DNA from: an uncultured Candidatus Peribacteria bacterium
Lineage (GTDB): Bacteria; Patescibacteriota; Gracilibacteria; UM-FILTER-43-11
Length of the DNA: 40,128 nt
NCBI GenBank assembly: GCA_964448005.1
Contig: CAYUUW010000010.1
Coordinates: 1 to 40,128 of the forward strand
Reading direction: 5' to 3'
The position numbers and the translations under genes were made by a program. The notes below the pieces were generated by a model that saw only the letters and a list, made by a program, of their open reading frames with translations, was not told the origin of the DNA and did no database searches. Of this stretch, positions 1 to 40,128 are shown piece by piece (position 1 is the stretch's first letter; the number at the start of each line of letters is the position of its first letter).

Positions 1-1360
<1,360 letters not shown>

Positions 1361-1384
1361 TTGGTTGGGATTATTGAGAGTCTT

Positions 1385-1468
1385 GTGATTCCAATTGTGA
1401 TTCCAGTAGTGAAGCCGGTTGTGAAAACAATAGTGATAATCACAATTGGCATCACCATCGGTTTCACA
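1385..1468. repeat. Degenerate 12-nt periodic repeat (GTGANNNCNNNT; CCAATTGTGA / CCGGTTGTGA words) between the ftsH start and the serS stop
   Basis: Read directly: gtgattccaatt gtgattccagta gtgaagccggtt gtgaaaacaata gtgataatcaca ... A related array lies at 5077-5172. Confidence 0.6.
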
Positions 1469-2744
1469 ATGGGATGTTTTTCGGCTGGATTTTTGTTATT
1501 CCCGGCAAGTAGGGATGCAGCGCCTTTGGAATTGTAACAGATCCGTCGGCGTTTTGGTGATTTTCCAGCAAGGCCACCAGGGTGCGGGTGGAGGCCATGG
1601 CCGTGCCGTTGAGCGTGTGCAGCAGCTGGGTGCCGTTTTCGTCTTTGTAGCGGATGCCGCCTCGGCGGGCCTGGAAATCGGTGCAGTTGCTGGTGGAGGT
1701 CAGCTCCCGGTAGCAGCCCTGCGTGGGGATCCACACTTCGCAGTCATATTTCTTGGCCGCGGGCGCCCCCAGGTCCCCGCCGCAGATGTTGAGCACCTGG
1801 TAGGGGAGCTCCAGCTCCTGGAAAATCTCCTCCTCCAGGCTCAGCAGCAGCTCGTGCTCCTTCCACGATTCTGAGGGGTGGCAGAAGGAGAACATCTCCA
1901 TTTTGTCGAACTGGTGCACGCGCAGGATGCCCTTGGTGTCCTTTCCGTAGCTGCCCGCCTCGCGCCGGAAGCAGCTGGAGAAGCCGATGTAGCGCTTGGG
2001 AAGCTGCTCGGCTGGAATGGGCTTGGCCATGTGCAGGCCGGCCAGAGGCACTTCGGAAGTGCCCACCAGGTACAGGTCGTCTTCGCCGGGGTTCACGTGG
2101 TAGATTTCGCTACGGTCGGCGGGAAAGTAGCCCGTGGCGAACATCATGTTCTCCTTCACCAGCATGGGCACGGTGACGGGGGTAAAGCCGCGCTGGACGT
2201 ATTTGGCGAAGAGCCAATTGACCAGGGCGAATTCCAGCAGCACGGCCTCGTTCTTGAGGTAGTAGAAGCGCGCTCCGCTCGTCTCCGCGCCGGTCTCCAG
2301 ATCGATCAGGTCGAGGGCCTTTCCCAGTTCGATGTGGTCTTTGGGCTCAAAGTCGAACTGTCGGGGCGTGCCCACGGTGCGCACGACTACGTTTTCCTGG
2401 TCGCTTTTTCCTTCGGGCACGCTTTCGTGCGGGGGATTGGGAATCTGCAGGAGCAGCCCTTTCAGCTCCGCCGCCAACTGCTCCATTTCCTCCTCGGCTT
2501 GCTTCTGCCGTTCGCCCAGTTCCTTCATTTCGGCGATCTTGGCCTGCTTTTGGTCGTTGGGCAGGGTCGGGATTTCCTTGGAAACAGCGTTCTTCTGAGC
2601 CCGCATGTCCTCCGTTTTTTGGAGCGCGCGGCGGTGCTTTTCATCCAATTCCAATAGTTTGGGAATATCCACGGTCACTTGCTTTTTCTGGAAGCCGCTT
2701 TGGTAAAGGGGAATGTTTTCGCGCAGGTGCTTGAGGTCGATCAT
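1464..2744 (-). CDS. serS: Seryl-tRNA synthetase
   Basis: Part of ORF 1464..2975. Homology starts at [15 protein letters not shown] (ATG at 2744-2742). Class II motifs are present: [24 protein letters not shown] and [20 protein letters not shown]. The 77 upstream codons (HNPHNPNHPNHP...) translate the leader repeat. Confidence 0.92.
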
Positions 2745-2809
2745 TGGGGTGGGATTATGGGGAGGGTCGGGATGATTGGGATGATTGGGATTATGGGGAT
2801 TATGGAGAG
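2745..2809 (-). repeat. 9-nt periodic, almost G-free (sense strand) leader repeat abutting the serS ATG
   Basis: The sense strand reads ctc cataatccc cataatccc aatcatccc aatcatccc gaccctccc cataatccc acccca ATG. Confidence 0.7.
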
Positions 2810-2820
2810 TTTCGCACCGC

Positions 2821-2873
2821 CTGTCATCCCGAGCCCCAAGGGGGCCACTCAGTGGCGCAGCCGAAGGATCTGC
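2821..2873. repeat. Hairpin-family element (GTCATCCCGAG...CCGAAGGATC variant)
   Basis: The sequence is ctgtcatcccgagccccaagggggccactcagtggcgcagccgaaggatctgc, an imperfect inverted repeat with an inner gccac/gtggc stem. Confidence 0.5.
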
Positions 2874-4196: not shown

Positions 4197-5013
4197 AGAG
4201 CCAGGGGTTGCCGAAGGTGGCCCGGCCGATCAGCACGCCGTCCACGCCGTATTTTTCGATCCTCTCGCGCGCATCCGCCAATGAGGTCACATCGCCATTG
4301 CCCAAAAGCGTCACGCCCGCTTGGCGGCAGAGCCGGGCAGCCTTGGCGATCTCGTCCCAATCCGCCTGGCCCAGGTACATCTGCTTCAGGGTGCGTCCAT
4401 GCAGGCTCAGATTGGCGGGATGCTCTTCCAGCAGGGTGCCGATCCACCATTCGGTGACAGGGCTGTCGTAGCCGATGCGGGTTTTGACGGAAATCGGCAA
4501 GTGGTTCCGAGGCCCTTCCTCGGGCCTCATTAGCTTGAGATGGTTGATGACCTTGGGGCGAAGCTCCGCCTCTTCCAGCGTGATTCCGTTGGCCCAGTCC
4601 TGGGCCGCCTTTTGCGTCGCGTGGATGATCTGCCTGGCCCGATCGGGCAGGCGAATGAGCCCGGCGCCGGAGCCCCGGCGCGCCACCTTGTTGGCGGGGC
4701 ATCCCATGTTGATGTCGATTCCGTCGAAGCCCAAATGGCACACCATCAGAGCCACCTGGTAGAAGGATTCTGGCTCCACGCCGTAGATCTGCGCCACGCA
4801 GGGCCGTTCGATCTCGTCGTACTTGAAAGCTTCCAGCATGCTCACGGCGCCGCGCGCCAAGCCTTCCACGTTCGTGAATTCGGTCATCACCACGCTGGGC
4901 TTGCCGTGCTTGCTGCTCATGTAGCGGAAAGCCGCGTCGGTCACGCCGTCCATGGGGGAAAGGCCGATGATGGGGCGAGGGAGGGTTTCCCAGAAGCCTT
5001 TGGGGGGAGTCAC
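3913..5013 (-). CDS. dus: tRNA-dihydrouridine synthase (Dus family, FMN TIM barrel)
   Basis: The 366-aa ORF has LSPMDGVTDAAFR, FDGIDINMGCPANKV, SVKTRIGY and LSLHGRT, as in the Dus family. The start codon appears to be GTG at 5013-5011. Confidence 0.88.
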   Translation of the reverse strand: MTPPKGFWETLPRPIIGLSPMDGVTDAAFRYMSSKHGKPSVVMTEFTNVEGLARGAVSMLEAFKYDEIERPCVAQIYGVEPESFYQVALMVCHLGFDGIDINMGCPANKVARRGSGAGLIRLPDRARQIIHATQKAAQDWANGITLEEAELRPKVINHLKLMRPEEGPRNHLPISVKTRIGYDSPVTEWWIGTLLEEHPANLSLHGRTLKQMYLGQADWDEIAKAARLCRQAGVTLLGNGDVTSLADARERIEKYGVDGVLIGRATFGNPWLFSGHEPSIEERFAAAVEHSQLFEEKHMTHAFFAMRKHLAWYCRGFDGAKEVRMQLMQANGAEEVRGILEKALQELKLKEAQLSAPEGMIAKPKQ

Positions 5014-5076
5014 TATTTTTTTAGTTAAAAATTACGAATTAAGAATTAGCAATTTCCAAGCAAAGGTCCATTTTCC

Positions 5077-5172
5077 AATTGTGGACCGAACTGTAGCTCC
5101 AATTGTAGAAAAAAATGATTAAATCCACAATTGGGCCCACAACCGGAGCCACAATTGGTATCACAACCGGGT
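5077..5172. repeat. CAATTG-word repeat array (ccaattgtgg / ccacaattgg / ccacaaccgg, 12-nt period at the 3' side)
   Basis: Read directly: ccacaattgggc ccacaaccggag ccacaattggta tcacaaccgggt. Inverted partner words ccaattgtgg and ccaattgtag lie about 50 nt upstream. It sits between the dus start and the DUF167 stop. Confidence 0.6.
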
Positions 5173-5606: not shown

Positions 5607-6938
5607 ATGCCTTCCCCCTCTCTCCTTGGTTTGGTTTCGGATGCTGCTTCCCCCATGGAAACCGCAGCGCCTGAGGTGGAGCCGGCTCCGGATCTGGGCC
5701 GGATTCTTGAGGGCATTCTTGCTGGGGAATTGAATTTGGACGAAGCTTTGGCCAGGCCGCCTGAAGAGCGTTTCCATCTTCTTTCGGCTTTGCTGGAATC
5801 CAGGAAGCGATGGAGGGGTGAGCTTCAGGCCCTGCTGGAATCCTCGGGCGCAGGCTGCTTTCCGGCTTCCTTGGCTTTGAGGGCTTTGGAATGCGGCTAC
5901 CTGAAGGACGTGCTGCCCTACATGGATCGCTTTGAGGGCCTCAGTCCCTTCTTTCTGGATCAGGCGTTGGATAGGGTGGGCGACATCCGCGGTCTTTTCG
6001 CCGCCTTGGTGAAGCGGATGGAGAGCATCAGCAATCGGGTCGGCCTTGCCTTGGTTCGCTCCGGGCAGGCTGTGGCTGTGGCCACTCAGCTGCGTCATTT
6101 CTCCCCTCTCAATTCCGAGCTGGCTCAGGAGCTGAGCGCCTTGGGATTCCTTCGGCAGGTGCTCGGAGCTTCGCAGGCGACGGATGAATTTCGATTGAGG
6201 CTGATTCATCAGGCTATTTTTGGGGCTCCGGACCTTGAGAAAATCATATCGGATTACGACCTGATGAAAGGTCGCCTTAGGCTGGATAAGGATTTGGCTC
6301 GTCTGATTCTGGCTTCCGGAGAGGAATCCGCTTTGGATTTCTTTTTCGAAAACATTGCCGATTTTGACTCTTTGGATACGGAAATCGCCCAAGCCTTGAT
6401 TGGGGCGGGCGAGCTGGAGAGGCTTTTTGAGCATAGAGCTCATTTTGCCCTGAACTACGAGGCTTTGCCGGTGATTCCTATCGCTCAATTGGGCGGTCAT
6501 ATGGCAGCCGAACTGGCGTTCCAGGTTCCGCTTTCCGAGGACTTCCGCTACAGGCTGGCTGTGGCCTGCATCGATGTGGGGCAGGGGCTGGTTTTGGCGG
6601 AGCGAATGGAGGATTTTGGCCTGAGCGATCCGCTGAAGGCCCAGTGTCTGGCTTCTTTAAAAGCCAGGGGCTATGGCGAGGAGCTGCTTGCCCTTTTGAT
6701 GCGCCACACAAACCAAAGCGTGCTTCTTCTGCGCCCCTCGCTTATTTCAGCTGGCTCCTCCTCCATTTCTCGATCTGCGCATGGTGGCCGCCCAGCAGCA
6801 CCTCGGGCACTTTCATGCCTCGGAACTCCGGCGGGCGGGTGTAGTGGGGGTATTCCTTTTTGCGGTCGAGGCTTTTGGAGAAGCTTTCCTCCTGGTGCGA
6901 TTCGTTGTTGCCCAGGGCGCCAGGCACCAGGCGGCTGA
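5607..6938 (+). CDS. Hypothetical Leu/Ala/Glu-rich protein; the last ~65 codons overlap convergent trmD
   Basis: 443-aa ORF with no domain recognised. The tail after about 6740 is antisense to trmD. Confidence 0.45.
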   Translation: MPSPSLLGLVSDAASPMETAAPEVEPAPDLGRILEGILAGELNLDEALARPPEERFHLLSALLESRKRWRGELQALLESSGAGCFPASLALRALECGYLKDVLPYMDRFEGLSPFFLDQALDRVGDIRGLFAALVKRMESISNRVGLALVRSGQAVAVATQLRHFSPLNSELAQELSALGFLRQVLGASQATDEFRLRLIHQAIFGAPDLEKIISDYDLMKGRLRLDKDLARLILASGEESALDFFFENIADFDSLDTEIAQALIGAGELERLFEHRAHFALNYEALPVIPIAQLGGHMAAELAFQVPLSEDFRYRLAVACIDVGQGLVLAERMEDFGLSDPLKAQCLASLKARGYGEELLALLMRHTNQSVLLLRPSLISAGSSSISRSAHGGRPAAPRALSCLGTPAGGCSGGIPFCGRGFWRSFPPGAIRCCPGRQAPGG

Positions 6939-10730: not shown

Positions 10731-10797
10731 TAGCTTAGGAGCTTATCCGCTTCGCTAGCTTATAAGCTTATTAAGCTCTGTAAGCTCCTAAGCTAAT
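10731..10797. repeat. AAGCT-word leader element, copy 1
   Basis: cttagcttaggagcttatccgcttcgctagcttataagcttattaagctctgtaagctcctaagcta. It shares agcttaggagctta, agcttattaagct, gtaagct and taagcta with 27257-27313. Confidence 0.6.
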
Positions 10798-10846
10798 ATA
10801 CAAAACCCAATTCAATTCCTCAATAACAAAAGGTATAGTGTGAGAG

Positions 10847-12109
10847 ATGCAAACCCTGCTCCGCTTCCTCTTCGGCCTCTTGATTTTGGCTCCTGTTGCA
10901 GGGGAGCTCTTCCGCATCCCTGTGGGTCCGCTGGAGCTTCTGCCTGCCGACCTGATCATTCCAGCAATCTTCATCGCATGGGTGATTCACAAGGTCCGCA
11001 GCGATAGGCACTGGCGCTGGGGCAAGGTTGGCAAGATGGCCATGCTCTTTCTTTTCGTTGTCACGCTGAGCTATTCCCTCAATCTGCTGCGCTTCGATCC
11101 GGAGCAAATGCTCTCGGCTTTTCCTGCCCTGGGGCGCCTGGGCATGTACGTGGTGCTGGCCCCCATGGCCTACGATCTGCTTCATAATGATTCCAGCGGC
11201 CGTTTCCGCAAGATGCTTTTGGCTTGCATGCTGCTGGCCATGCTCCTGATTGCCCTGCTGGGCTTCGCGCAGCTGCATTTCTTCCCCAGCTTCCTGGAGC
11301 TGGGCCTTTACCTGGACGGGTGGGATCCTCACATCGGGAGGCTGCTTTCCACCTGGTTCGATCCGAATTTCGTCGCAGGCTACTTGGCGTTCATGCTGCC
11401 TGTGGCTTTGGCCTTGGCGCTCTATTTTTGGCGGATCCGGCGCTACTGGCTTTTCGCCCTGCTGGCTTTCCTGGCCCTCATTGCTCTGGTGGCCCTTTAC
11501 CTCACTTTCTCCCGTAGCGGCTATTTGGCCTTCTTGGCTGCCTTGGGCCTGCTTTCCCTGCTCAAGTCTCCTCGGCTTCTGGCGGCGGGGCTGCTGGCTT
11601 TCGCGCTGGCCTTCAGCGCTTCGCCCCGCATGCAGCAGCGCAGCCTGGAGGCGGTGGATTCGGCCAAATCGCTGATCGGGCTGGATTCGCAGAAGCCTCT
11701 GGATCCCACGGCCCGATTCCGGGTGGAATCCTGGCAGATCGCCGGGGAGATCATCGCCGAGCATCCGCTGCTGGGCATTGGCTACAACCGCTACGCCCAC
11801 GAGATCAATCGGCGGGGCTACGGGGAGCTTTCTGGCCATGCGTCCAGCGGCTCGGACAGCTCGCTCCTCACGATTTGGGCGACCACGGGCCTTTTCGGGC
11901 TTCTGAGCTACTTGGCCATGGCCTTTGTGGCGGCCGCCCTGGCCTTCCGCCGGGCCTGGACTGCCTCGGATCTGCCGAGCACCCGTTCTGCAGGCCTGCT
12001 GGCCGGCTTCGGAGGGCTTTTCGTCCATTCCTTCTTCGTCAATTCGCTGCTGTACGCCCTCATCATGACCACTTTCTGGGTAGGCTTGGCGCTGCTGGAT
12101 GAGATATAG
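10847..12109 (+). CDS. O-antigen ligase/polymerase (Wzy_C-like) family membrane protein
   Basis: Polytopic 420-aa protein with LYLTFSRSGYLAFLAALGLL and LLGIGYNRY, typical of the family. Confidence 0.8.
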   Translation: MQTLLRFLFGLLILAPVAGELFRIPVGPLELLPADLIIPAIFIAWVIHKVRSDRHWRWGKVGKMAMLFLFVVTLSYSLNLLRFDPEQMLSAFPALGRLGMYVVLAPMAYDLLHNDSSGRFRKMLLACMLLAMLLIALLGFAQLHFFPSFLELGLYLDGWDPHIGRLLSTWFDPNFVAGYLAFMLPVALALALYFWRIRRYWLFALLAFLALIALVALYLTFSRSGYLAFLAALGLLSLLKSPRLLAAGLLAFALAFSASPRMQQRSLEAVDSAKSLIGLDSQKPLDPTARFRVESWQIAGEIIAEHPLLGIGYNRYAHEINRRGYGELSGHASSGSDSSLLTIWATTGLFGLLSYLAMAFVAAALAFRRAWTASDLPSTRSAGLLAGFGGLFVHSFFVNSLLYALIMTTFWVGLALLDEI

Positions 12110-12178
12110 CGAAAGAATTGACAGGTTTTTTATTAGATGATTGAATGACAAACCTTCTATCAAGCTAACCCCTAAAGA

Positions 12179-13090
12179 ATGAAAAAGATATTTGAATCAA
12201 CATCTCAACTGACGAGTTTGGCTGGGGCTGCATTAGGGTCTTTCATGTTTTTGGCTACAAGTTGTAACCTTCCATCTGCACAGGAGGTTGCCAAAGCCGA
12301 ACGAGATGCACGATCTGCTTCGGATGGAATGGAACGTTTTAAGCTGGAGCTTAGAAATTCAGTTGTAAGCTGTAGGCAGAAAATTTCAGCCGTACGGAGG
12401 CCTCGAGATATGACCGTAGGAGATGGTTTCAACTACGATGCTCGCCAGCTAGTTGAAAATAGAGCTTGGATTGATAATCGAGAGGGCATTCTGGTTCAAC
12501 ATACATTAATTGAGTGCTATACAGAATTGGGGACTGCCCAGGAGGCTCGTCGAGCAGAAGATGAGAAAATTGCTGCACTCGAGAACTTACAACAAGAAAG
12601 AGCTAAGCTTAGAGACATTGTGTGTGAGGAATATCCTGCGGATAGAGTTTGCAATCCAGAATATGCCAATAGTCCAGATTTTGCCGCACATTGCTATTTT
12701 GATAGAGCTGATTTACCTCATCCCAGAGATATACCCGCTCAAATGGATGGTATGGACTGTAATAGATATGAAGGTTATTTGTTAGCTGATTTGGAGGAAG
12801 TGATTAATGTATGGGGTCAATTTAGCATGGGTGAAAGCTCGTGGATGGATGATGCAGATGAAGATTTTACAGAAGCCGGAGGTTTATCCTTGCTTGCTGA
12901 GATGAGAGAAAAACCATCTTTAGTTAATAAAGTCGCAAAATCCCTTGGCTTATCAACTTCTGAGCTAAGAAAACGAATTGAAGTTTTAAGAAAAATTAGT
13001 AATGAGTATAAATCTGGTCATTTTGATGCGAATGAAACACTTCCTATTCGTTTCGCCTTATTGGAGGAAATACCAACCCAGAAAAAATAA
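12179..13090 (+). CDS. Putative lipoprotein, unknown function, visibly low GC
   Basis: Signal peptide with a lipobox-like FLATSC; the rest is hydrophilic with several Cys. Confidence 0.6.
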   Translation: MKKIFESTSQLTSLAGAALGSFMFLATSCNLPSAQEVAKAERDARSASDGMERFKLELRNSVVSCRQKISAVRRPRDMTVGDGFNYDARQLVENRAWIDNREGILVQHTLIECYTELGTAQEARRAEDEKIAALENLQQERAKLRDIVCEEYPADRVCNPEYANSPDFAAHCYFDRADLPHPRDIPAQMDGMDCNRYEGYLLADLEEVINVWGQFSMGESSWMDDADEDFTEAGGLSLLAEMREKPSLVNKVAKSLGLSTSELRKRIEVLRKISNEYKSGHFDANETLPIRFALLEEIPTQKK

Positions 13091-13170
13091 GCATTTCAAA
13101 ATAGATTATTTGTTTTTTTTGGGATTGTTGGTTGGGTTGGATCCTGATCAAGGCTTACAGCTTAGCTTGC

Positions 13171-13503
13171 CTAATAAATCAGCACCTCGTTCAGGGCAAA
13201 AATAGCCTTCTTCAACTGTTCCTTGCTCACCCGGCCCAGGCGTTCGCCGAGGCGCTTCCCGGAAAGGGTCCGGATCTGGAAGGTGAGGATTTCCGAATCT
13301 TTTTCCAGCCCGTTGCCTGGGCTTTTAGGAATGAAGACGGAGCCTGGATAATCCTTTTTTGACGAGGAAAAAGGGCACACGATGACTAGGCCTAAATGCT
13401 CGTTCATCGCATTCCCCGAAACAATCAGCACGGGCCGTTTTCCATTCTGCTCCCTGCCCAGGGCTGGGTTCAGTTCGGCCCAATAGATCTCGCCTTGCTT
13501 CAT
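13171..13503 (-). CDS. mazF: MazF/PemK-family endoribonuclease toxin
   Basis: MKQGEIYWAELNPALGREQNGKRPVLIVS...LVIVCPFSS is the classic PemK N-terminus. There is a 4-nt ATGA overlap with the upstream gene. Confidence 0.85.
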   Translation of the reverse strand: MKQGEIYWAELNPALGREQNGKRPVLIVSGNAMNEHLGLVIVCPFSSSKKDYPGSVFIPKSPGNGLEKDSEILTFQIRTLSGKRLGERLGRVSKEQLKKAIFALNEVLIY

Positions 13504-13751
13504 AGGTCCAATTGCTTAAGCTGCCCTTCATAATCTTCCACCCCCATTTCGGCCAATTCAAAAAGATCGGCATCTTTGGAGGCGCGCTTGAATCCCTCGG
13601 CGAAGGTGCGGCGCTTCGCCTGGAAACGATAGGCTTTTAGGGCTTCCTCCAGAACCGAGCGCTGGGTGCTGCGCTGCTCCTTGGAAAATTCCCGCAGCCA
13701 CTGCAGAAGCTCTGCAGAGAGGGCGGTGGTGAACATTGGAGCGTTTGCCAT
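13500..13751 (-). CDS. Cognate antitoxin, probably ribbon-helix-helix
   Basis: 83 aa. FTTALSAELLQWLREFSKEQRSTQRSVLEEALKAY resembles a CopG/RHH fold. It is translationally coupled to mazF. Confidence 0.65.
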   Translation of the reverse strand: MANAPMFTTALSAELLQWLREFSKEQRSTQRSVLEEALKAYRFQAKRRTFAEGFKRASKDADLFELAEMGVEDYEGQLKQLDL

Positions 13752-18091: not shown

Positions 18092-18127
18092 ACCATATTT
18101 CCTTTCTCTTCTCTTTTTCTCAAATTT

Positions 18128-18169
18128 CCCAATAATCCCTATCACTCCCAATCATCCCCCAATAGGCCC
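18128..18169 (+). repeat. CCC-N6-type G-poor leader repeat upstream of gyrB
   Basis: cccaataat ccctatcac tcccaatca tcccccaat aggccc. Confidence 0.55.
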
Positions 18170-18217
18170 TAGACACTTCTCGGCCTGTGCGATACACTCT
18201 GGTGGGCGTTTTTTTGA

Positions 18218-20257
<2,040 letters not shown>

Positions 20258-20329
20258 CCCCGTTTAGACTTCCGGCTGGCCAGGCCTCCTGGCCAAGCCT
20301 CCATTAACCATAATCAATCCCTCTTCCCC

Positions 20330-21265: not shown

Positions 21266-21323
21266 CCCGACCCCGGAATTCCCCTGGGCGGACAGGCAAG
21301 GGAAGGGTATGCTTCTTGCACAT

Positions 21324-21417
21324 GCGCCCATAGCCCCGAAGGGGGGCCTTCGGCCCTTAACGGATAAAGTCCCGGTCTTCGGTCCCGATGTTCATCGGGA
21401 CGATTCCCCTGGGCGGA
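21324..21417 (+). pseudogene. Degenerate tRNA-Arg-like copy carrying two hairpin insertions
   Basis: It shares gcgcccatagc and ttaacggataaagtcccggtcttcgg with the intact gene. A 22-nt insert lies in the D region (21335-21356), and the hairpin tcccgatgttcatcggga replaces the 3' anticodon stem. The acceptor 3' strand is imperfect. Confidence 0.5.
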
Positions 21418-21448
21418 CAGGCAGCCTAAGGGTATTCTTCTGGCACAT

Positions 21449-22926: not shown

Positions 22927-23241
22927 TCAAGACAACCCTCTCCGTGATTGGATGGGGCTATGATGATGAAGCCTGCCGATAATCATTCTGTAGCCAGCCC
23001 CTTTGCCGTTCAGCCATTTCGCGACACGGGCAACGGTGGCCGAGCTTAAGCCGGTCTCCTTTTCAATGAGTGAGTATGGTATTTTTTCCGTGAGCATTTC
23101 CGCTGCTTTTAGACGATTCGCCAATTCCATGATTTCCTTCTCTGTCATCAGGTCGCGCAAAAACCGCTCGGCTTCATTCTCCGTTTTAAGCGCCAAGATG
23201 GCCTGGATCAGCCTTTGATTTCCTTTGCCTTTCCAATCCAT
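22927..23241 (-). CDS. TrpR-like YerC/YecD-family DNA-binding protein
   Basis: ENEAERFLRDLMTEKEIMELANRLKAAEML...IEKETGLSSATVARVAKWLNGKGAGY. Confidence 0.75.
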   Translation of the reverse strand: MDWKGKGNQRLIQAILALKTENEAERFLRDLMTEKEIMELANRLKAAEMLTEKIPYSLIEKETGLSSATVARVAKWLNGKGAGYRMIIGRLHHHSPIQSRRGLS

Positions 23242-27256: not shown

Positions 27257-27313
27257 AGCTTAGGAGCTTACAGAGCTTATTAAGCTTCTAAGCTATGTAA
27301 GCTTTATAAGCTA
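27257..27313. repeat. AAGCT-word leader element, copy 2
   Basis: agcttaggagcttacagagcttattaagcttctaagctatgtaagctttataagcta. It is in the same orientation relative to its downstream minus-strand gene as copy 1. Confidence 0.6.
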
Positions 27314-31331: not shown

Positions 31332-31514
31332 GGGAGCGAATTAGGGGATTGAATCTGAAGCGAGTTTATCGGAAAAGCTCTCTTTTTAAAACCTCCCTCT
31401 ATTCTCTTTTCCCTTCAAAACAGTGCGGAAATTGCGTAAACTGTGCGTTGAAAAACATGCGGCAGGCGGCCAGCTGTCTGCCGCAAGCGGTTGCAGCCAC
31501 TGGCCTGCATCAGT

Positions 31515-31559
31515 CCCAATAATCCCCACACTCCCCACGCTCCCAATAATCCCACCCAA
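31515..31559 (+). repeat. Five in-phase CCC-N6 9-mers abutting the gatB ATG
   Basis: cccaataat ccccacact ccccacgct cccaataat cccacccaa ATG. Confidence 0.75.
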
Positions 31560-32990
31560 ATGATTTACGAAACCGTCATCGGCCTGGAAGTGCATTGCCG
31601 GCTGAAAACCAAAAGCAAGCTGTTCTGCCGCTGCGCCAACGAAGGGGTGGCCGACGAAGCCCCCAACAGCCGCGTCTGCCCCATCTGCATGGGCTTTCCC
31701 GGCATGCTGCCTTTGATGAACCAGGCGGCTGTGGAGAAGGGGGTGCAGGCGGCTTTGGCCTTGGGCTGCACAATTCCGGAATTCTCGAAGATGGACCGCA
31801 AGAGCTACTTCTACCCCGATCTGCCCATGGGCTACCAGATCTCGCAGTACGATCTGCCCGTGTCGCAGAAGGGGGCGGTGAGCATCACGCTGTCCGACGG
31901 ATCCGAGAAAGCCATCGGCGTGACCCGGCTGCACCTGGAGAACGACGCAGGCAAGCTGACGCACGGCGCCAATGGAACCCTCGTCGATTACAACCGGGGC
32001 GGCGTTCCCCTGATGGAGATTGTGAGCGAGCCGGATCTGCGCACGCCCGAGGAGGCGGTGGAATACGCCCGCCAGCTGCAGAAGATCGTGCGCTACGTGG
32101 GGGCGAGCGATGCGGACATGGAAAAGGGGCAGATGCGCTTCGACCTGAACCTTTCCCTGCGCCCTGTGGGCCAGGCGGCCTTCGGCACCCGCTCGGAAGT
32201 CAAGAACCTCAATTCCTTCCGCTCGCTGCAGAAGGCTGCGGAGTACGAGATCAGGCGCCAGACGGAGCTGCTGGAGAAGGGCGAGAAGATCGTTCAGGAA
32301 ACCCGCGGCTGGGACGACGAAAAAGAGATCACCGTGTCGCAGCGCAGCAAGGAGGAGGCGGCCGACTACCGCTACTTTCCCGAGCCGGATCTGCCTCCTT
32401 TGCGGATGACGAAGGAGATGGTGGAGGCGCTGCGCGCCCAGCTTCCCGAGCTGCCCGAGGCCAAAGCGAAGCGCTACCAAAGCGAGTTGGGCCTGCCTGC
32501 GGCCGATGCGCGCCAGATCGCGGAGGACCGGGCCTTGGCCGAGTACTACGAGGCGGCGCTGGCGACATCCGGCGAGGCGAAGAAGACGGCGAACTGGCTG
32601 CTGAGCGAGCTACTGGCCCTGCTGAAGCCGGAGGGGCTGACGATCGAGCAATCGAAGCTCTCTGCTCCGAACTTGGGCAAATTGGTCAAATTGATTGAAT
32701 CCGGCGCGATCACGGGCAGGATCGCCAAGGACCTTTTCCCCGAGCTTTACGCGGGGGATCTGAATCCGGAGAAGCTGGTGGAGGAGAGGGGACTTACGGT
32801 GATGGAAGATGCCGGCGCCTTGGAGGCGATCTGCCGCCAGGTGATCGAGCGCAATCCGCAGATCGTGGCGGACTTCAAGGCCGGCAAGGAAAAGGCCTTG
32901 GGCGGCTTGGTGGGTCAGGTGATGGCGGCGACGAAGGGGGCGGCGAATCCGGGGAAAGTGAATGAGGTGTTGAGGGAATTGCTTCGGTAA
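31560..32990 (+). CDS. gatB: Asp/Glu-tRNA(Asn/Gln) amidotransferase subunit B
   Basis: MIYETVIGLEVHCRLKTKSKLFCRC, CPICMGFPGMLP, DRKSYFYPDLPMGYQISQ, VTRLHLENDAGK, and the C-terminal YqeY-like tail. Confidence 0.93.
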   Translation: MIYETVIGLEVHCRLKTKSKLFCRCANEGVADEAPNSRVCPICMGFPGMLPLMNQAAVEKGVQAALALGCTIPEFSKMDRKSYFYPDLPMGYQISQYDLPVSQKGAVSITLSDGSEKAIGVTRLHLENDAGKLTHGANGTLVDYNRGGVPLMEIVSEPDLRTPEEAVEYARQLQKIVRYVGASDADMEKGQMRFDLNLSLRPVGQAAFGTRSEVKNLNSFRSLQKAAEYEIRRQTELLEKGEKIVQETRGWDDEKEITVSQRSKEEAADYRYFPEPDLPPLRMTKEMVEALRAQLPELPEAKAKRYQSELGLPAADARQIAEDRALAEYYEAALATSGEAKKTANWLLSELLALLKPEGLTIEQSKLSAPNLGKLVKLIESGAITGRIAKDLFPELYAGDLNPEKLVEERGLTVMEDAGALEAICRQVIERNPQIVADFKAGKEKALGGLVGQVMAATKGAANPGKVNEVLRELLR

Positions 32991-33002: not shown

Positions 33003-34011
33003 AGAATGCTTGTTATGGGAAACAATAAAAATCTCATCATCTATCAGGCTAAAACCGGAGCCATTGAGCTTAAGGGTGATTTTAAAAAAGAGACGGTATG
33101 GGCTAATTTGAATCAAATTGCTCAGCTTTTTGATACTGATAAATCAGGTATATCTAGGCATATCAAGAACATTTTTAAAATCAAAGAACTTAAACAAAAA
33201 TCAAGTGTTGCAATTTTTGCAACAGTTCAAAAGGAAGGTGGTAAGCAAGTGAAGCGCGATATAGAATACTATAATTTAGACATGATTCTTTCCGTTGGCT
33301 ATAGGGTGAATAGTAAAAAAGCAACTTCATTCCGCCAATGGGCGACTAAAACTTTGCGTTCCCACCTCATTCAGGGCTATACCATTAATCGCTCTCAAAT
33401 TGGCAGGAACTACGAGAAATTTATGAAGGCCGTGGCAGAAGTTAAGTTGCTTTTGCCTCCTTCGGACTTGGTCGACGCCAACGATGCCCTTGAACTGGCT
33501 CAGCTTTTCGCCAATACGTGGTTTTCTCTGGATGCTTATGATAGGTCCACTTTTCCCGTAAAAGGATTGATGAAAAAGGAAGTTGATTTTACTGCCAATC
33601 AGCTTGCTCAAGCTTTGGCTGAGCTTAAAAAGGGGCTCATGGCCAAAAAGGAGGCTTCGGGGCTTTTCGGTTCCGAGCGGGGTGGTCAGAGCTTGGCGGG
33701 GATTGTGGGGAATGTTTTTCAGTCTTTTGAGGGTGAGGATTTATATGTGACGATTGAAGAGAAGGCAGCTCATTTGCTTTACTTCATTGTTAAAAACCAT
33801 CCTTTTGTGGATGGAAACAAGCGTTCCGGGGCTTTTGCCTTTGTTTGGTTTTTGAATCGGAGTGGAATTCTGGAGAAAGAGAAAATGAACCCCGTTGCCC
33901 TCACTGTGTTGACTTTGCTGGTGGCAGAGAGTGATCCAAAGGAAAAGGATAGAATTATTGGATTGATTTTATTGCTTCTGAGATAGGCGATCTTAAAAAA
34001 TGATCAGGGGG
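33003..34011 (+). mobile_element. Putative inserted single-gene cassette (RhuM-Fic/Doc) bounded by duplicated gatB 3' ends; no recombinase
   Basis: See the direct repeats 32943-33002 and 34012-34071. The interior has visibly lower GC. Confidence 0.45.
33006..33986 (+). CDS. RhuM-family N-terminal domain fused to a Fic/Doc (death-on-curing type) domain
   Basis: RhuM block: ETVWANLNQIAQLF...ISRHIKNIF...YYNLDMILSVGYRVNSKKATSFRQWATKTLRSHLIQGY. Doc-type Fic motif: HPFVDGNKRSGAFAF. Confidence 0.85.
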   Translation: MLVMGNNKNLIIYQAKTGAIELKGDFKKETVWANLNQIAQLFDTDKSGISRHIKNIFKIKELKQKSSVAIFATVQKEGGKQVKRDIEYYNLDMILSVGYRVNSKKATSFRQWATKTLRSHLIQGYTINRSQIGRNYEKFMKAVAEVKLLLPPSDLVDANDALELAQLFANTWFSLDAYDRSTFPVKGLMKKEVDFTANQLAQALAELKKGLMAKKEASGLFGSERGGQSLAGIVGNVFQSFEGEDLYVTIEEKAAHLLYFIVKNHPFVDGNKRSGAFAFVWFLNRSGILEKEKMNPVALTVLTLLVAESDPKEKDRIIGLILLLLR

Positions 34012-34059
34012 GCGAATCCGGGGGAGCTGAATGAGATTTTGAGGGGGATGTTGGGGTAG
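34012..34059 (+). pseudogene. Relic copy of the gatB 3' end (ANPGELNEILRGMLG*)
   Basis: It is gap-free and 36/48 nt identical to 32943-32990 (ANPGKVNEVLRELLR*). The phase is the same and the stop falls at the equivalent codon. Confidence 0.6.
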
Positions 34060-34096
34060 GGGAGTTTTATTGATTTTACTATTTTAACAATTAACT

Positions 34097-34594
34097 ATGG
34101 AAAAAGAATATTTTGAGTACAAAAAAGAGTATTGGAAAGAAGAGCTTTTCAGATCCTCTGATAAGGCAAATTTTCATTCACACAATTTTTGCAATACCCA
34201 AGCAAATTTAGCCTCGATAGTGATAGGATTCCTCTCATTCAGTATTTATTTTGATGTAGGGGTTTTTTCCGACACAAAAATATTGATATTTCTGACCTAT
34301 ATGTCTGCATTTTTGTCCTTAGCATTTGGTTTGTTTAATTTCGGCCTCAAGCGTAGATTTTGGTCTGATTCTACTGATAAAATTCAGAAAATTAATGGAG
34401 AGTATCTTAAATTCTTAAAAACAAAAAAGGATGATACGAAGCAGGAGGACTACAGATGTTTATTTGAAAAAGAGAAATTGATTTTAGGTGAGAAGAAAGT
34501 CTCGTCAAATTCTTGGGCATGGATATCACAAAGTATTTTTTTGGCAGTAAGTTTTTTACTTTTTATTCTAGTTTCATGGAAAGCGGCATTCTGA
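34097..34594 (+). CDS. Hypothetical 3-TM membrane protein, low GC
   Basis: 165 aa. Hydrophobic segments lie at ~37-57, 64-88 and 141-162, with a K/E-rich loop between. No domain recognised. Confidence 0.55.
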   Translation: MEKEYFEYKKEYWKEELFRSSDKANFHSHNFCNTQANLASIVIGFLSFSIYFDVGVFSDTKILIFLTYMSAFLSLAFGLFNFGLKRRFWSDSTDKIQKINGEYLKFLKTKKDDTKQEDYRCLFEKEKLILGEKKVSSNSWAWISQSIFLAVSFLLFILVSWKAAF

Positions 34595-34637: not shown

Positions 34638-34927
34638 CATGGACTCCGGATCGGGTCCGGAGTGACGGAGGGGGAGGGCATGGACTCCGGCCCTGCCTAC
34701 CGTCGCCGGAATGACGGCCATTCATCCAGCAAACCATCCGTCATTCCGTGCCACGACACGGAATCCACCTGTCCCTCCAATTCACCTTTTAGACTGTGGC
34801 AGATCTGCCTCCCGCCGCCACCCATGGACTCCGGATCGGGTCCGAAGTGACGCTCCCCACCCGTCATTCCGTGCTACGACACGGAATCCACCTACCCCTC
34901 TATCATTCCGGCGAAAGCCGGGATCCA
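34638..34927. repeat. Pile-up of six hairpin-family elements upstream of the GIY-YIG gene
   Basis: The elements lie at 34638-34668(-), 34679-34717(-), 34738-34769(+), 34823-34852(-), 34861-34892(+) and 34902-34927(+). The consensus is CCGTCAYTCCG-loop-CGGARTCCA. Confidence 0.8.
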
Positions 34928-35266
34928 TACCAAAACAGTCATCATGAAGCAGCCCTGCGTTTACATTCTGGCTAGCCAGCCGCAGGGCACCTTGTACATC
35001 GGCGTCACGAGCGACCTGATGAAAAGGGTGCATGAGCACAAGCAGAAGCTCGTGGAGGGGTTCACTAAAAAATACAATGTAGATCGACTCGTCTATTTTG
35101 AGCTCCATGAGGATATGCCTTCGGCCATTGAGCGTGAGAAGCATTTGAAGGAGTGGAAAAGGCGATGGAAGATCGAACTCATAGAAAAGGAGAATCCCCT
35201 TTGGACCGATCTGTATGAGAGTCTGCTGGAGTGAAAAGCGTGGATTCCGGCTTTCGCCGGAATGAC
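34902..35266 (+). mobile_element. Putative 365-bp unit: a GIY-YIG gene bracketed by 26-nt inverted hairpin elements
   Basis: atcattccggcgaaagccgggatcca at 34902-34927 matches the reverse complement of 35241-35266 (gtcattccggcgaaagccggaatcca) at 24/26 positions. The repeats lie 16 nt before the ATG and 6 nt after the stop. Confidence 0.45.
34944..35234 (+). CDS. GIY-YIG nuclease superfamily protein (UPF0213/YhbQ-like, COG2827 type)
   Basis: CVYILASQPQGTLYIGVTSDLMKRVHEHK...VYFELHEDMPSAIEREKHLKEWKRRWK. Confidence 0.88.
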   Translation: MKQPCVYILASQPQGTLYIGVTSDLMKRVHEHKQKLVEGFTKKYNVDRLVYFELHEDMPSAIEREKHLKEWKRRWKIELIEKENPLWTDLYESLLE

Positions 35267-35461: not shown

Positions 35462-36895
35462 TTAGGGGCACATCATTCCTCCATCGTCGATGCTCCACAA
35501 ATGGGCAGTGATCAGGCTGCTCCGATCCGGTTCGCTCTTGCAGTAGGTGGAATCGCCTCCGTGGAAGGGGACCTTGGGCTGCACGGCCTGGGCGTTCCAT
35601 CCTGCCAAAAGGGAATCGTAATTCGGGGTGGAAAGGCGGGCACCTGTAAACATATCCGTCATATCGGTGACGGAAGCTATATTCCAATTGCCGATATTCT
35701 GGTCGAAATCGATGGCATCGGCGAACATGAAGTGCATGTCGGTCACTTTGCTGACGTCCCAGCCTCCGATGTCCTGGTTGAAGGGGGTGTCTGCGAACAT
35801 TCCTGTCATATTCGTCACGTTGCTCACGTCCCAATTGCCAAGGTTATGGTTGAAAGGGGTATATGAGAACATGTCGGTCATATTCGTGACATTTCCCACA
35901 TTCCAGCCCCCGATATCCTGATTGAATGCGGCCGCACCCGAAAATATTCCGCTCATGTCTGTGACGCCGCTAACATCCCAATTGCCAATGGCTTGATTGA
36001 AGGCGGTGTTTTGGGCGAACATTCCCCTCATTTCTTTCACATTGCCTACATCCCAGCTGCCGATCTTCTGGTTGAAAGCAGTATTATGAGCGAGCATGTA
36101 GGACATATCTGTTACGTTTCCTACATCCCAGCTGCCGATGTCTTCGTTGAAAAGGGTCGATGAAAACATTCCGAACATATTTTTCACACCACTCACATCC
36201 CAGTTGCTTATTTTCTGGTTGAACGCATTGTTACCAGCAAACATATCACTCATGCTTGCCACCTTGCTCACATCCCAACTGCTGATGTCTTGGTTGAAGA
36301 AGGGGGTCGCTGCGAACAGGGCGCTCATGTCCGTCACCTTGCCCACATCCCAACCGCTGATGTCTTGGTTTAAGGAGGTTTCCGCGAACATGGCGCTCAT
36401 GTCCGTGACATGCGAAAGGTTGGGGCTGTCGGTGGCGTTGAGGGTCATGTTGTACGCTCCACTGAAAGCGCGAGCCATAGAAGTCCATGGGCTCTTGCCC
36501 CATTGCTCCACACTAAGCAGCTTTCCGCCTTCCGCCGTATAGGCAAAATAGATTCGCGGAAAAGTGCCGGAGATAGAGATGTTATAGGTTCCTGGCCCAG
36601 CGTAGTCACACGTGTAATCCCCGATTTGGTGGGTTGCTTCATGGATACCGTCGCTGTCGCAATCGACGCTGTAGTCGTAGACCTCCCCTGGAAAGGTGGG
36701 GATGGTGAACTGGTCATTGGCCGAGATTCCGGGATTGTCCGTCTTCGCTTTGATCACGAAATCATTGGGATCGTTCTTCGCGGAGATCGTCAAATCGTTG
36801 GGAGCGTAGGGGGTGCGGGAGGCATGCGCATAATTCATGTCCAAGAATCCTGCCAGCAGGACTAGGGCGGCTAGGGCGAATGAAATTTTCTTCAT
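35462..36895 (-). CDS. BspA-family leucine-rich-repeat surface protein (DUF285 repeats)
   Basis: A signal peptide is followed by about 10 repeats of FNQDIxxWDVSxVTxMxxMF. Confidence 0.85.
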   Translation of the reverse strand: MKKISFALAALVLLAGFLDMNYAHASRTPYAPNDLTISAKNDPNDFVIKAKTDNPGISANDQFTIPTFPGEVYDYSVDCDSDGIHEATHQIGDYTCDYAGPGTYNISISGTFPRIYFAYTAEGGKLLSVEQWGKSPWTSMARAFSGAYNMTLNATDSPNLSHVTDMSAMFAETSLNQDISGWDVGKVTDMSALFAATPFFNQDISSWDVSKVASMSDMFAGNNAFNQKISNWDVSGVKNMFGMFSSTLFNEDIGSWDVGNVTDMSYMLAHNTAFNQKIGSWDVGNVKEMRGMFAQNTAFNQAIGNWDVSGVTDMSGIFSGAAAFNQDIGGWNVGNVTNMTDMFSYTPFNHNLGNWDVSNVTNMTGMFADTPFNQDIGGWDVSKVTDMHFMFADAIDFDQNIGNWNIASVTDMTDMFTGARLSTPNYDSLLAGWNAQAVQPKVPFHGGDSTYCKSEPDRSSLITAHLWSIDDGGMMCP

Positions 36896-38305: not shown

Positions 38306-38397
38306 CTGGCCGAGATAGCCGACTATCTCTTGGTTTTTTTAAAATCACTTGATAAGTAAACTTTTGTTTACTAGAATGAGTAGGAAATTGGAATTTG

Positions 38398-38964
38398 ATG
38401 AATAGCAGCATGAAAAAGGAATCTGTGCCCATGACTATTTTTCCTGAAAAAATTCAGGATTTCATTTATGTCATTCGTGATCAGCGAGTGATTTTGGATA
38501 AAGATCTCGCGAAGCTGTATGGCGTGGAAACCAGGAGGCTGAACGAGCAGGTAAAAAGGAATATCGACCGATTCCCGGAGGATTTTATGTTTCAGCTAAC
38601 AGAGAAGGAGGTTGCTTTAAGATCGCAAATTGCGACCTTAAAGAAAAGGCGTGGTGAACATCGTAAATACTTGCCCTTTGCTTTTACTGAGCATGGTGCC
38701 ATCATGGCCGCCAATTTGCTCAGGAGTCCTCAGGCGATCTCGGTAAGTATTCAGGTTGTCCGTACTTTTATCGAACTCCGCAAATGGACCCAATCCCATC
38801 AGGCGCTTATTGAGGAAGTAGACTCACTCAAAAATTTTGTGCTCAAAAATTCACAAACAAGCAGCCAAGAATTCAGGAAGGTCTGGAGGGCGATCGAGAA
38901 ATTGATGGTTCCTGAACCCAAACCAGAGGAAAGGCGAATTGGATTTAGGCTGGAAGGGGATTGA
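38398..38964 (+). CDS. ORF6N (KilA-N-related) domain DNA-binding protein
   Basis: IRDQRVILDKDLAKLYGVETRRLNEQVKRNIDRFPEDFMFQLTEKE...RKYLPFAFTEHGAIMAANLL. Alternative starts lie at 38395, 38410 and 38431. Confidence 0.8.
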   Translation: MNSSMKKESVPMTIFPEKIQDFIYVIRDQRVILDKDLAKLYGVETRRLNEQVKRNIDRFPEDFMFQLTEKEVALRSQIATLKKRRGEHRKYLPFAFTEHGAIMAANLLRSPQAISVSIQVVRTFIELRKWTQSHQALIEEVDSLKNFVLKNSQTSSQEFRKVWRAIEKLMVPEPKPEERRIGFRLEGD

Positions 38965-38987
38965 GCCAGGAGTATTTCCTAAATTTT

Positions 38988-39186
38988 GGACCTCCTCCCG
39001 GCCTCCTCCAAAGGAGGAGGGGAAATGCAAAATACAGATCCCCCCTGCCCCCCCCTTTCGCAAGGGGGGTGTCGTTGCCAATCACAGGTCTTCTCCCACT
39101 CCGTCATTCCGTGCTCCGACCTGCCTGCCGGCAGGCAGGCTCCTCCAAAGGAGGAGGGGTGCTGTCATTTCGGCGAAAGCATTAAT
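38988..39186. repeat. Composite repeat block right of the ORF6N gene
   Basis: ggacctcctcccggcctcctccaaaggaggagggg lies at 38988-39022, and the hairpin cccccc-tttcgcaa-gggggg at about 39051-39070. ccgtcattccgtgctccgacctgcctgccggcaggcagg lies at 39101-39139, ctcctccaaaggaggagggg at 39140-39159, and gtcatttcggcgaaagc at 39164-39180. Confidence 0.8.
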
Positions 39187-39224
39187 TCAGGTGGTACTAA
39201 GCCACAGACTCATCTAACCCTGAA

Positions 39225-40043
39225 TCAGGGGATATGTCCTGCGGGCAGATCGGCCACAGCTTCTGGGATCAATTCCTCAGCTTCTTTCTCCATTAATTTA
39301 TCAATACGATATATCGCCTTCATGTTTCCTTTGTAATCTTCAATTGCCTTTTTATCCTTGAAATATTTGAAAGAAATTCCTTCATGTTTCCATAGGGCCC
39401 TATGGTAATTTTTCATTAATTTCAAATTGTAGATTTTGGCTTGGAAAATTTCTTTGATTTTTTCTTTTTCCATCGAATCCAGTAAATTTTCTACTATATT
39501 AGAGAACCCAGCTAGATTTTCGGAATGAGATTTTTGTTGATTCATGGGGGGCATTTTTTCCGCAAATGCCTCGTTTCTTCTGAGTAGATTTTCGAATTCA
39601 ACTTTAAACTGTTCGAATGTTCTATTTGCCCATCTAATTGTATGGTCGATAATCAAAATCTTATTGTGTAAGTAATAGCTCCCAAATTTCATTTTCGTTA
39701 ATCCTGTATCGAATTGAATAGTTGTAGTTATTGGAGAGTTGGTGTAATTCAAAACGAACACTCTGGGATCATTGGTTGACTTAACTTCTTCAATTAAGAT
39801 TTTTACCCTTTTTATAAACTCCCTCCATTCTTTTATGGATAAAGAAAGGTCGTTTAGAGTTTGTGAAAAAGCAATTTCTGCTCTTCTTATTGCTTCCTTC
39901 CTATCGTTCCTTCTTTGAAAAAGACCTTTTATAAGAAAGCCTATTGCAGAAAGAGTTATTGCTAAAAATGGACCTAAGGCTGAGCAAATTAGGGTTTGCC
40001 ACCTTTCTATAAAGGCGGTAGTTGTTGTTGATATCGATATCAT
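39225..40043 (-). CDS. Hypothetical N-terminally anchored protein, low GC
   Basis: 272-aa ORF with a TM segment at ~18-40, then K/E-rich helical sequence. No domain recognised. Confidence 0.55.
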   Translation of the reverse strand: MISISTTTTAFIERWQTLICSALGPFLAITLSAIGFLIKGLFQRRNDRKEAIRRAEIAFSQTLNDLSLSIKEWREFIKRVKILIEEVKSTNDPRVFVLNYTNSPITTTIQFDTGLTKMKFGSYYLHNKILIIDHTIRWANRTFEQFKVEFENLLRRNEAFAEKMPPMNQQKSHSENLAGFSNIVENLLDSMEKEKIKEIFQAKIYNLKLMKNYHRALWKHEGISFKYFKDKKAIEDYKGNMKAIYRIDKLMEKEAEELIPEAVADLPAGHIP

Positions 40044-40071
40044 TCTTACTTTTTGAATATTTAAACCAAAA

Positions 40072-40095
40072 CCCCGCCATGAGGCGGGGTTTTTT
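40072..40095. terminator. Bidirectional terminator hairpin
   Basis: ccccgcc atga ggcgggg, flanked by aaaa on one side and tttttt on the other. Confidence 0.7.
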
Positions 40096-40109
40096 CGATT
40101 CCGATCTGC

Positions 40110-40128
40110 CTACATCATCCCTCCCATG
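40110..40128 (-). CDS. Last 5 codons of a gene entering from the right edge (...MGGMM*), a tail typical of GroEL
   Basis: The reverse complement of the window end reads atg gga ggg atg atg tag. A terminator follows on the minus strand. Only 5 codons are visible, so the identification is weak. Confidence 0.3.

Follow-up and report, generated by a model that had tools for sequence, protein, structure and literature searches.

The complete 40,128-nt contig CAYUUW010000010.1 of an uncultured Candidatus Peribacteria bacterium (GC content ~55%; hereafter the window) carries, directly upstream of the start codons of gatB, serS and ftsH, a common G-free block of 15 bases, (A/C)ATAATCCCAMCCMA. The motif is real, strongly non-random, non-coding and on the sense strand, and the feature to which it belongs is conserved and lineage-specific. 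We propose, with a little less than even confidence, that the block is an unstructured, transcribed leader for translation initiation that is independent of a Shine–Dalgarno (SD) sequence, with AAUAAU placed where an SD would sit. The block would be the start-proximal unit of a lineage-specific 9-bp repeat family, CCCMATMAT, and would act as the 5' leader and translation initiation region (TIR) of a subset of housekeeping genes.

The 14-base sequence ATAATCCCAMCCMA occurs exactly three times in the window, each time adjoining a start codon: at 31546–31559 on the forward strand and at 2745–2758 and 1361–1374 on the reverse strand, with the ATGs of gatB (31560), serS (2744) and ftsH (1360) directly 3' of the copies. 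A sequence-only reading of the same DNA had reported this shared motif and quoted its sequences correctly. It had also judged that such sharing was unlikely to be due to chance, and the counts agree: the 18-mer AATAATCCCAMCCMAATG, which is the block plus ATG, has three matches in the window at up to three mismatches where 0.09 would be expected, and dinucleotide-preserving shuffles of the window, 100 in all, never gave as many as three. The sequence ATAATCCC is present eight times (1.06 expected). All but one of these copies precede serS, ftsH, gyrB or gatB on the sense strand; the exception is inside a gene for a TPR protein.

The best relatives of GatB, SerS and GyrB, at 72–81% identity, are proteins named Candidatus Peregrinibacteria or Patescibacteria. 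We compared the window with ten Peregrinibacteria loci (L118, L119, L242 and L244–L250), of which L118 and L245 belong to one genome from a single sample (SRR31559756) and L242 comes from ERZ27249344. In L118 (GatB 81% identical, GC content 43%) the sequence upstream of gatB reads CCCAATCAT CCCAATAAT CTCAATACC CCAATCAT CCCAACCTT-ATG. The five units, a -10-like hexamer (AATCAT) and the hexamer-N9-ATG register of the window gene are all kept there, whereas the discriminator, as the bases after the hexamer would be called in a promoter, has diverged. L242 (SerS 77% identical) shares the gene order dus, serS, ftsH with the window and has AATAATCCCAACAAA-ATG upstream of a TPR gene, in frame and 39 nt before the called start. 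At gyrB of L245 we found only a related TTAATCCCGAAAACCAAA-ATG. An alignment of five motif copies from three genomes gave the invariant core AT-AT-CCCA-C---ATG, with A at -15, -14, -12, -11 and -6 (the last invariant) and C at -3 in four of the five copies. The register of the hexamer (A/C)AT(A/C)AT to the start codon, N9, is constant in all five, and the terminal unit of the array is consistently unlike the internal units.

The motif was absent from the orthologous serS, ftsH and gyrB of L242, L244, L246, L249 and L250 (76–77% protein identity), and the CCCMATMAT family was not found in the more distant relatives L119, L244 and L246–L250 (73–76% identity), where other tandem families occupy the same places: CGTTAY-N3 and TTTTGTAAT in L119; AAGTGT/ACACTT, AATCTGTA and CATAAAT in L246; CACCGCT in L247; and CGTAATT, AATTTACA and CAATCCC/ATTGGAA in L248. 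A scan of a 596-Gb genome collection with a 17-mer returned single matches in unrelated taxa only, with ~280 expected by chance and none in an array context. Two consecutive units, CCCMATMATCCCMATMATCCC, were found at 120 metagenome loci, most of them either repeats within unrelated coding sequence (P-N-N or D-D-G type) or DNA of other organisms, and none of these loci had the unit-N6-ATG ending.

At gatB and serS the block is the last unit of a CCCMATMAT array, in keeping with the earlier description of the motif as the end of tandem CCC-N6 9-mers. Tandem Repeats Finder (TRF) reported period-9 arrays at 2751–2805 (6.1 copies), 31514–31554 (4.6 copies) and 18127–18158 (3.4 copies), in which the units match one another at 75–80% (Table 1). 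The gatB leader contains one G in 46 nt. Similar tracts of C, A and T only had also been claimed before secF, purE and gyrB. Tracts rich in these bases are present at all three genes, but the gyrB tract ends well upstream of the ATG rather than at it; the secF tract is indeed G-free, whereas the purE tract has one G, and secF and purE have single degenerate units only. The ftsH copy lies downstream of a spacer hairpin (-30.8 kcal/mol, z = -4.4) that ends ~15 nt before the motif; the motif falls in a stretch of ~35 nt between the main stem and the AUG and is unpaired in the predicted fold.

Table 1. Positions of the motif, the repeat arrays and neighbouring promoter-like sites in the window.
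Feature	Position	Strand	Basis or remark
Terminal motif AATAATCCCACCCAA + gatB ATG	31545..31562	+	Motif search, alignment
Terminal motif AATAATCCCAACCAA + ftsH ATG	1358..1375	-	Single unit, without 9-nt array
gatB leader, five 9-nt units CCCAATAAT CCCCACACT CCCCACGCT CCCAATAAT CCCACCCAA, ending at ATG 31560	31514..31559	+	TRF; predicted unpaired
serS leader, 6–7 9-nt units (CATAATCCC / AATCATCCC type), end CATAATCCCACCCCA, then ATG 2744–2742	2745..2812	-	TRF; folding
Sigma-70-like ATGACA-17-CATAAT upstream of serS	2799..2827	-	10/12 matches; the first array unit supplies the -10
serS–ftsH spacer, 12-nt CCAATTGTGATT / ATCACAATTGGA-type units in inverted order	1383..1470	-	TRF; folding
gyrB-upstream array, CCCAATAAT CCCTATCACT CCCAATCAT CCCCCAATA, CCCMATMAT family	18127..18163	+	84 nt from ATG 18248
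Sigma-70-like TAGACA-17-TACACT, between gyrB array and gyrB ATG	18170–18198	+	Sequence match
secF leader, G-free, one degenerate unit CCATAATCAATCCC, ATG 20330	20298..20329	+	
purE leader cttcagattcaatcccctaattcgctccc-ATG, G-poor, degenerate units, divergent from gatB	31332..31360	-	

Profile matches identified the genes concerned (FtsH by AAA and M41, SerS by Seryl_tRNA_N, with matches also for GyrB, SecF and PurE (AIRC)). Homology could have placed their starts elsewhere; instead, residue 1 of SerS aligns to position 1 of the Seryl_tRNA_N profile, and the close relatives of GatB all begin M-x-YE-x-V-x-G-x-E where the GatB of the window begins. Because these two lines agree, we take the motif-adjoining ATGs to be the true starts, and the tract is therefore non-coding. 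Upstream of each of the three ATGs the gene frame stays open, with the repeat in phase, so the arrays might be read as an N-terminal extension in which CCC-N6 is translated as a P-x-x peptide (PNNPHTPHAPNNPTQ-M...). We rejected this reading, which is almost certainly wrong: there is no in-frame ATG or GTG within or just before the arrays, the gatB array of L118 is interrupted by an in-frame TAA 30 nt before the ATG, and homologues and Pfam profiles start at the ATG. Any array with a 9-nt period and a 9-nt register would show such phasing of necessity.

Gene callers do appear to misplace starts around such arrays. The TPR gene of L242 probably starts at the motif-adjacent ATG at 11026 and was called at 11065, and three GatB relatives (P0019, P0023 and P0026) have N-terminal extensions of 15–63 residues that resemble translated upstream repeats.

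The motif genes have no GGAGG-like core 5–10 nt upstream of the start, and no G at all within the 14–25 nt upstream of the gatB, serS and ftsH ATGs; the earlier remark that the tracts lack a purine-rich SD extends to the clade. Across the gene starts with enough flanking sequence in the window and the ten related loci (124–134 starts), GGAG, GAGG or AGGA occurred at -20 to -4 in 6 of 134, compared with 20 and 17 in control windows. SD-like tetramers being rarer there than in the controls, SD-like sequence is depleted where an SD would be expected. Poverty in G upstream of the start is not special to the motif genes, and here the sequence-only reading has to be corrected: it is a trait of the whole clade, with G at 0.02–0.15 at every position from -25 to -1 versus 0.21–0.28 genome-wide. 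Among the motif-less genes of the clade, A is most frequent at -11 (0.51) and at -4/-3 (~0.5).

Start regions are also predicted to be weakly structured. For 28 starts in the window, the mean minimum free energy (MFE) of the region from -40 to +20 was -5.8 kcal/mol, compared with -14.2 kcal/mol for random 60-mers (p = 7e-12). The least structured of the 28 were serS (0.0 kcal/mol) and gatB (-0.5 kcal/mol), and only 1.2% of random windows had an MFE of -2 or weaker. The serS and gatB arrays are fully unpaired in the MFE structures, and by these predictions the tract cannot fold. Folding of longer upstream regions, for pairing of the arrays with upstream G-rich segments, gave no significant result (z = -1.1, -1.2 and -0.1). 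A search of Rfam 15 at the gathering score returned the two tRNAs only and no known RNA family for the motif. UAAUCC in the motif is a possible partial match to the universal GGAUUA of helix 24 in 16S rRNA, which we note as a lead only. Ribosome standby sites and CA-rich unstructured enhancers, described mostly from artificial or individual leaders in SD-using bacteria, likewise place a long, single-stranded, G-poor 5' tract beside the start codon; the tract described here differs in being natural, conserved, built of repeats and found in an SD-less lineage.

If the block is a leader, the array would be transcribed: at serS from a promoter whose -10 element would be the first repeat unit, so that use of the sigma-70-like site there would leave the remaining ~45 nt of the array as transcribed 5' untranslated region, and at ftsH by polymerase that either reads through from serS or starts at a promoter in the spacer. 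The 30S subunit would then meet an extended landing site of unpaired C, A and U, in which AAUAAU (-15 to -10) and the invariant A at -6 would occupy the positions of the positive A determinants of SD-less Bacteroidia, determinants that have been proposed to contact bS1. G-free direct repeats would guarantee the lack of structure, a property that may explain their recruitment as leaders. Consistent with a leader, the sense strand is essentially G-free over 45–55 nt. Motif genes have one to three G in the region from -40 to -1, as against seven and nine in a trpR-like gene and a glycosyltransferase gene (GT1), which also fold much more strongly upstream; this is expected if the DNA upstream of those two genes is not RNA.

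The closest functional parallel is the SD-independent TIR of Bacteroidia. In Flavobacterium johnsoniae, SD sequences are absent genome-wide and start regions have low structure, as in the motif genes (PMC6847099, PMC7797042), and A at -3, -6, -12 and -13 together with low structure tunes initiation (PMC6847099). The motif is similarly A-rich from about -15 to -11, with enrichment at -11 to -14 and at -6, the latter position being invariant. It differs at -3, which is C in most copies while other clade genes have ~0.5 A at -3/-4, and in being a C-rich, conserved 14–15-mer derived from tandem repeats rather than a loose preference for A. The host also differs, as a member of the Candidate Phyla Radiation (CPR): bS21, which in Bacteroidia sequesters the anti-SD together with bS18 and bS6, is often missing from Peregrinibacteria (PMC9297842), and one member, listed among SD-scarce organisms, is reported to lack CCUCC altogether (PMC10783764). 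Neither a 16S rRNA gene nor rpsU was present in the window or in the related loci examined.

The idea of an SD-independent enhancer or unstructured landing pad, already raised by the sequence-only reading, is thus partly supported: the missing SD, the predicted single-strandedness and the weakest folding among the window starts favour it, and the -10-like hexamer, 9 nt from the ATG, gives rise to a competing promoter or near-leaderless reading. Several further points weigh against a leader. Transcription of the array is deduced from sequence, and its G-freeness could be the mere composition of a DNA repeat unit. A landing pad needs neither 14–15 conserved bases nor an exact 9-nt register, which points to sequence-specific recognition, whether of a -10 element or by some trans factor. 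The C at -3 contrasts with the Kozak-like A found in Bacteroidia, the motif is missing from the serS and ftsH orthologues of L242, and the gyrB array lies upstream of a likely promoter, far from its ATG. Other repeat families of the clade contain G and form strong hairpins, so an unstructured leader cannot explain the arrays as a class.

The main rival explanation, which we consider unlikely, is that the block is the core promoter of near-leaderless mRNAs, with (A/C)AT(A/C)AT as the -10 element, CCCAMCNNN as a long C-rich discriminator, transcription starting at, or 1–2 nt before, the A of the ATG, and the upstream units acting as redundant -10-like sites. Leaderless-mRNA promoters are known in Actinobacteria and Deinococcus, and rRNA-type promoters have C-rich discriminators, to one of which, that of rrnB P1, the discriminator here can be likened; the motif resembles both in that a -10-like hexamer, with C-rich sequence after it, lies a short and constant way upstream of the start codon. 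The hexamer has A at -11 and T at -7 of a -10 element in all five copies and matches TATAAT at five of six positions in four of them, and its spacing to the ATG is exactly 9 nt throughout, even between the orthologous gatB genes with their diverged discriminators. At ftsH the motif is the only -10-like element between the strong spacer hairpin and the ATG. Over 124 clade starts, -10-like hexamers were distributed bimodally, at 7–9 nt from the start (10 of these in motif-less genes) and broadly at 19–31 nt, with almost none at 10–18 nt.

The window also holds convincing start-adjacent extended -10 sites, which make it probable that this organism expresses some genes from leaderless mRNAs. The candidates are the trpR-like gene at 23241 (-), with TGaTAAAGT-gacggc-ATG and TTGACC at -35, and GT1 at 24095 (+), with TGcTACACT-gggccc-ATG; a third candidate leaderless gene, Wzy-like, lies at 10847 (+), with TATAGT-gtgagag-ATG. 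Against these better candidates the motif compares poorly as a promoter. Its 9-nt spacing, found in all five copies, exceeds the 6–7 nt of these start-adjacent sites and of leaderless promoters; the two extended sites combine a G-initial discriminator with a TG extension, whereas the motif is C-rich after the hexamer and lacks both features. Relative to TANNNT, the hexamers AATAAT, CATAAT and AATCAT keep A-11 and T-7 without T-12 or TG, gatB has no -35 match, and the hexamer is tandemly iterated, unlike in known leaderless promoters. L118 has CTT before the ATG, so that a purine start there would require a 9-nt discriminator, and sense-strand G-freeness over 45–55 nt would go unexplained. The leader and promoter readings could also coexist, with the upstream units as promoter and the terminal unit as TIR.

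A rather improbable third reading is that the block, or the CCAAT / TAATCCC core that recurs along the array, is an operator through which a sequence-specific protein, binding DNA or RNA, jointly controls a small regulon of housekeeping genes, with the AAGCT-type and CAATTG-type families described below marking other regulons. The presence of 14–15 conserved bases at unrelated genes would fit this, as would the recurrence of three repeat families in the window, L118 and L242 at partly different genes, which resembles regulon turnover, and the occurrence of CCAATCCC-type units in more distant relatives, at queF in L246 and coaE in L248. An operator does not require a fixed register to the ATG, however, no candidate regulator was identified, and the five known copies are too few to judge functional coherence.

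A fourth possibility is that the arrays are non-adaptive: repeats made by slippage and tolerated at starts because they are G-free and free of structure, with the 14-mer shared by descent or by gene conversion of array ends. We think this improbable. Counting arrays with periods of 6–13 nt across the clade, we found 3.5 per kb in co-directional spacers, 1.6 per kb in divergent spacers and 0.6 per kb in convergent spacers, against 0.26 per kb in coding sequence; the unit families are many, unrelated and different between relatives, as would suit neutral repeats. The short tandemly repeated repetitive (STRR) sequences of cyanobacteria are a precedent for abundant intergenic repeats with no known function, and theirs is still unresolved (PMC2670836). 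Like the arrays here, they form several short-repeat families confined to intergenic DNA near gene ends, and some form hairpins; they differ in being heptamers of filamentous (heterocystous) cyanobacteria, whereas periods here are 6–12 nt (9 for CCCMATMAT), the host belongs to the CPR, and the terminal unit of the CCCMATMAT family is specialised and fixed in position against the ATG. That the terminal unit consistently differs from the internal ones speaks against neutrality, as does the gatB array, whose five-unit length and register persist in L118 despite 19% divergence in GatB and a 12-point shift in GC content. The genomes are compact, so neutral DNA should be lost. Drawing these analogies together, the feature appears to work most like the SD-independent TIRs of Bacteroidia and standby or landing-pad leaders and resembles STRR in form, but it is a member of none of these groups, nor of the leaderless promoters.

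The antisense strand of the arrays offers a further candidate, a template-strand G-quadruplex in which the GGG-N6 repeats would fold and modulate transcription or replication. Of the six canonical motifs (G3+N1-7 x4) predicted in the window, four lie on the strand opposite the serS, gatB and gyrB arrays. The total of six is not far above the expectation from composition (mean 3.6, maximum 7); the single unit at ftsH makes a quadruplex impossible there, L118 has one loop of 13 nt, other repeat families lack G runs, and the ATG register would be left unexplained. A quadruplex is accordingly very improbable.

CCCMATMAT is one family within a lineage-wide system of short tandem arrays in upstream spacers, which the earlier reading had overlooked, as it had the conservation in relatives. 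Clade-wide, co-directional spacers show a 13-fold enrichment of such arrays, which frequently supply the arms of hairpins, and at least three tandem families are present in the window. Many arrays are inverted pairs that make long hairpins (z from -3.0 to -9.9) ending 5–18 nt before the ATG, as in the spacers at 5610–5694, 12038–12139 and 18769–18840 of L246, at 4826–4913, 4148–4246 and 1143–1256 of L248 and at 9908–10003 of L119. The serS–ftsH spacer of the window belongs to this type. The apex is frequently occupied by a -10-like element, such as TGATATAAT in the L246 prfA spacer, and array hairpins with an apical extended -10-like element may represent a hairpin-embedded promoter or insulator design. 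Within the collection of papers searched, we found no description of tandem-repeat leaders or arrays in Peregrinibacteria or the CPR.

Two other families recur in the window. The second consists of 8–9-nt AAGCT(T) units, including the palindrome AAGCTT, and lies at 10757–10798 (in the divergent ksgA/Wzy spacer) and 27274–27312 (upstream of an AI-2E transporter gene); in L242 it is found at other genes, upstream of rfbA (10125) and of a CTP_transf gene (11712). The third has 12-nt CAATTG/TTGTGG-type units (CCAATTGTGNNN / CARGTTGTGGGN) in inverted order, at 1383–1470 and at 5075–5170 (between a DUF167 gene and dus), and also occurs in L242 at 3201–3290, upstream of serS.

Tandem repeats between a promoter and a start codon are familiar from phase-variable simple-sequence repeats in promoters and 5' untranslated regions of Neisseria, Haemophilus and Mycoplasma. 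The arrays here differ, with degenerate units (75–80%), at housekeeping genes and with no copy-number variation in one population comparison: L119 and L120, variants with 99.8% identity, showed no difference in 1,638 intergenic bases. The arrays are thus not hypervariable, although these loci carry other array families and the test is indirect for CCCMATMAT. We rejected phase variation on these grounds, and the same constancy of copy number tells against non-adaptive repeat DNA.

As a broader and doubtful proposal, the clade may have replaced the SD/anti-SD interaction by a repeat-based cis architecture. Arrays would stand in most upstream spacers, often in inverted pairs that flank a -10-like element. 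Transcripts reading through from upstream would form a hairpin that occludes the next start, whereas RNA from the embedded promoter would carry the unstructured 3' arm only. At least one family, CCCMATMAT with a terminal CCCAMCMAA, would then be a sequence-specific initiation signal in a 9-nt register, read by a ribosomal or accessory factor.

How start codons are chosen and tuned in SD-less bacteria is still an open question. To our knowledge, the signals that govern gene expression are almost wholly uncharacterised in the CPR, whose members cannot be cultured on their own. With a conserved 15-mer in a fixed position against the AUG of housekeeping genes, there is a concrete sequence to mutate, and if the promoter reading were true, near-leaderless expression of core genes would be documented in the CPR. 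Under either reading, the abundance of arrays in upstream spacers matters for annotation, since gene callers extend open reading frames through them.

Several other features of the window were noted. The sequence TGCTACACT was found again upstream of rfbA (27933), 44 nt from the ATG. A palindrome resembling repetitive extragenic palindromic (REP) elements, with the core GTCATTCCG...CGGAAT, has 23 copies at up to one mismatch compared with 9.5 expected (for example at 2823, 15029, 18053, 22418, 34707–34910, 35258, 38212 and 39103); copies cluster around a GIY-YIG nuclease gene (34944–35234; Pfam E = 2e-16) and also lie just upstream of the serS and gyrB arrays. Two direct repeats of ~50 nt (ttcccctgggcggacaggca...gggtat.cttct.gcacat) at 21266–21448 precede a tRNA-Arg(TCG)/tRNA-Ala(CGC) pair and may be duplicated promoter or processing elements. 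Islands of low GC content and low third-position GC (GC3) at 12176–13751, 33003–34594 and 38380–40128 hold likely imported genes, namely those for a MazF/PemK toxin with its antitoxin, a RhuM/Fic protein and an ORF6N-domain protein. Finally, a DUF285 ('Mycoplasma') repeat protein encoded at 35462–36895 (-) has internal DNA repeats of 72–75 nt at 35742–35926 and 36260–36406.

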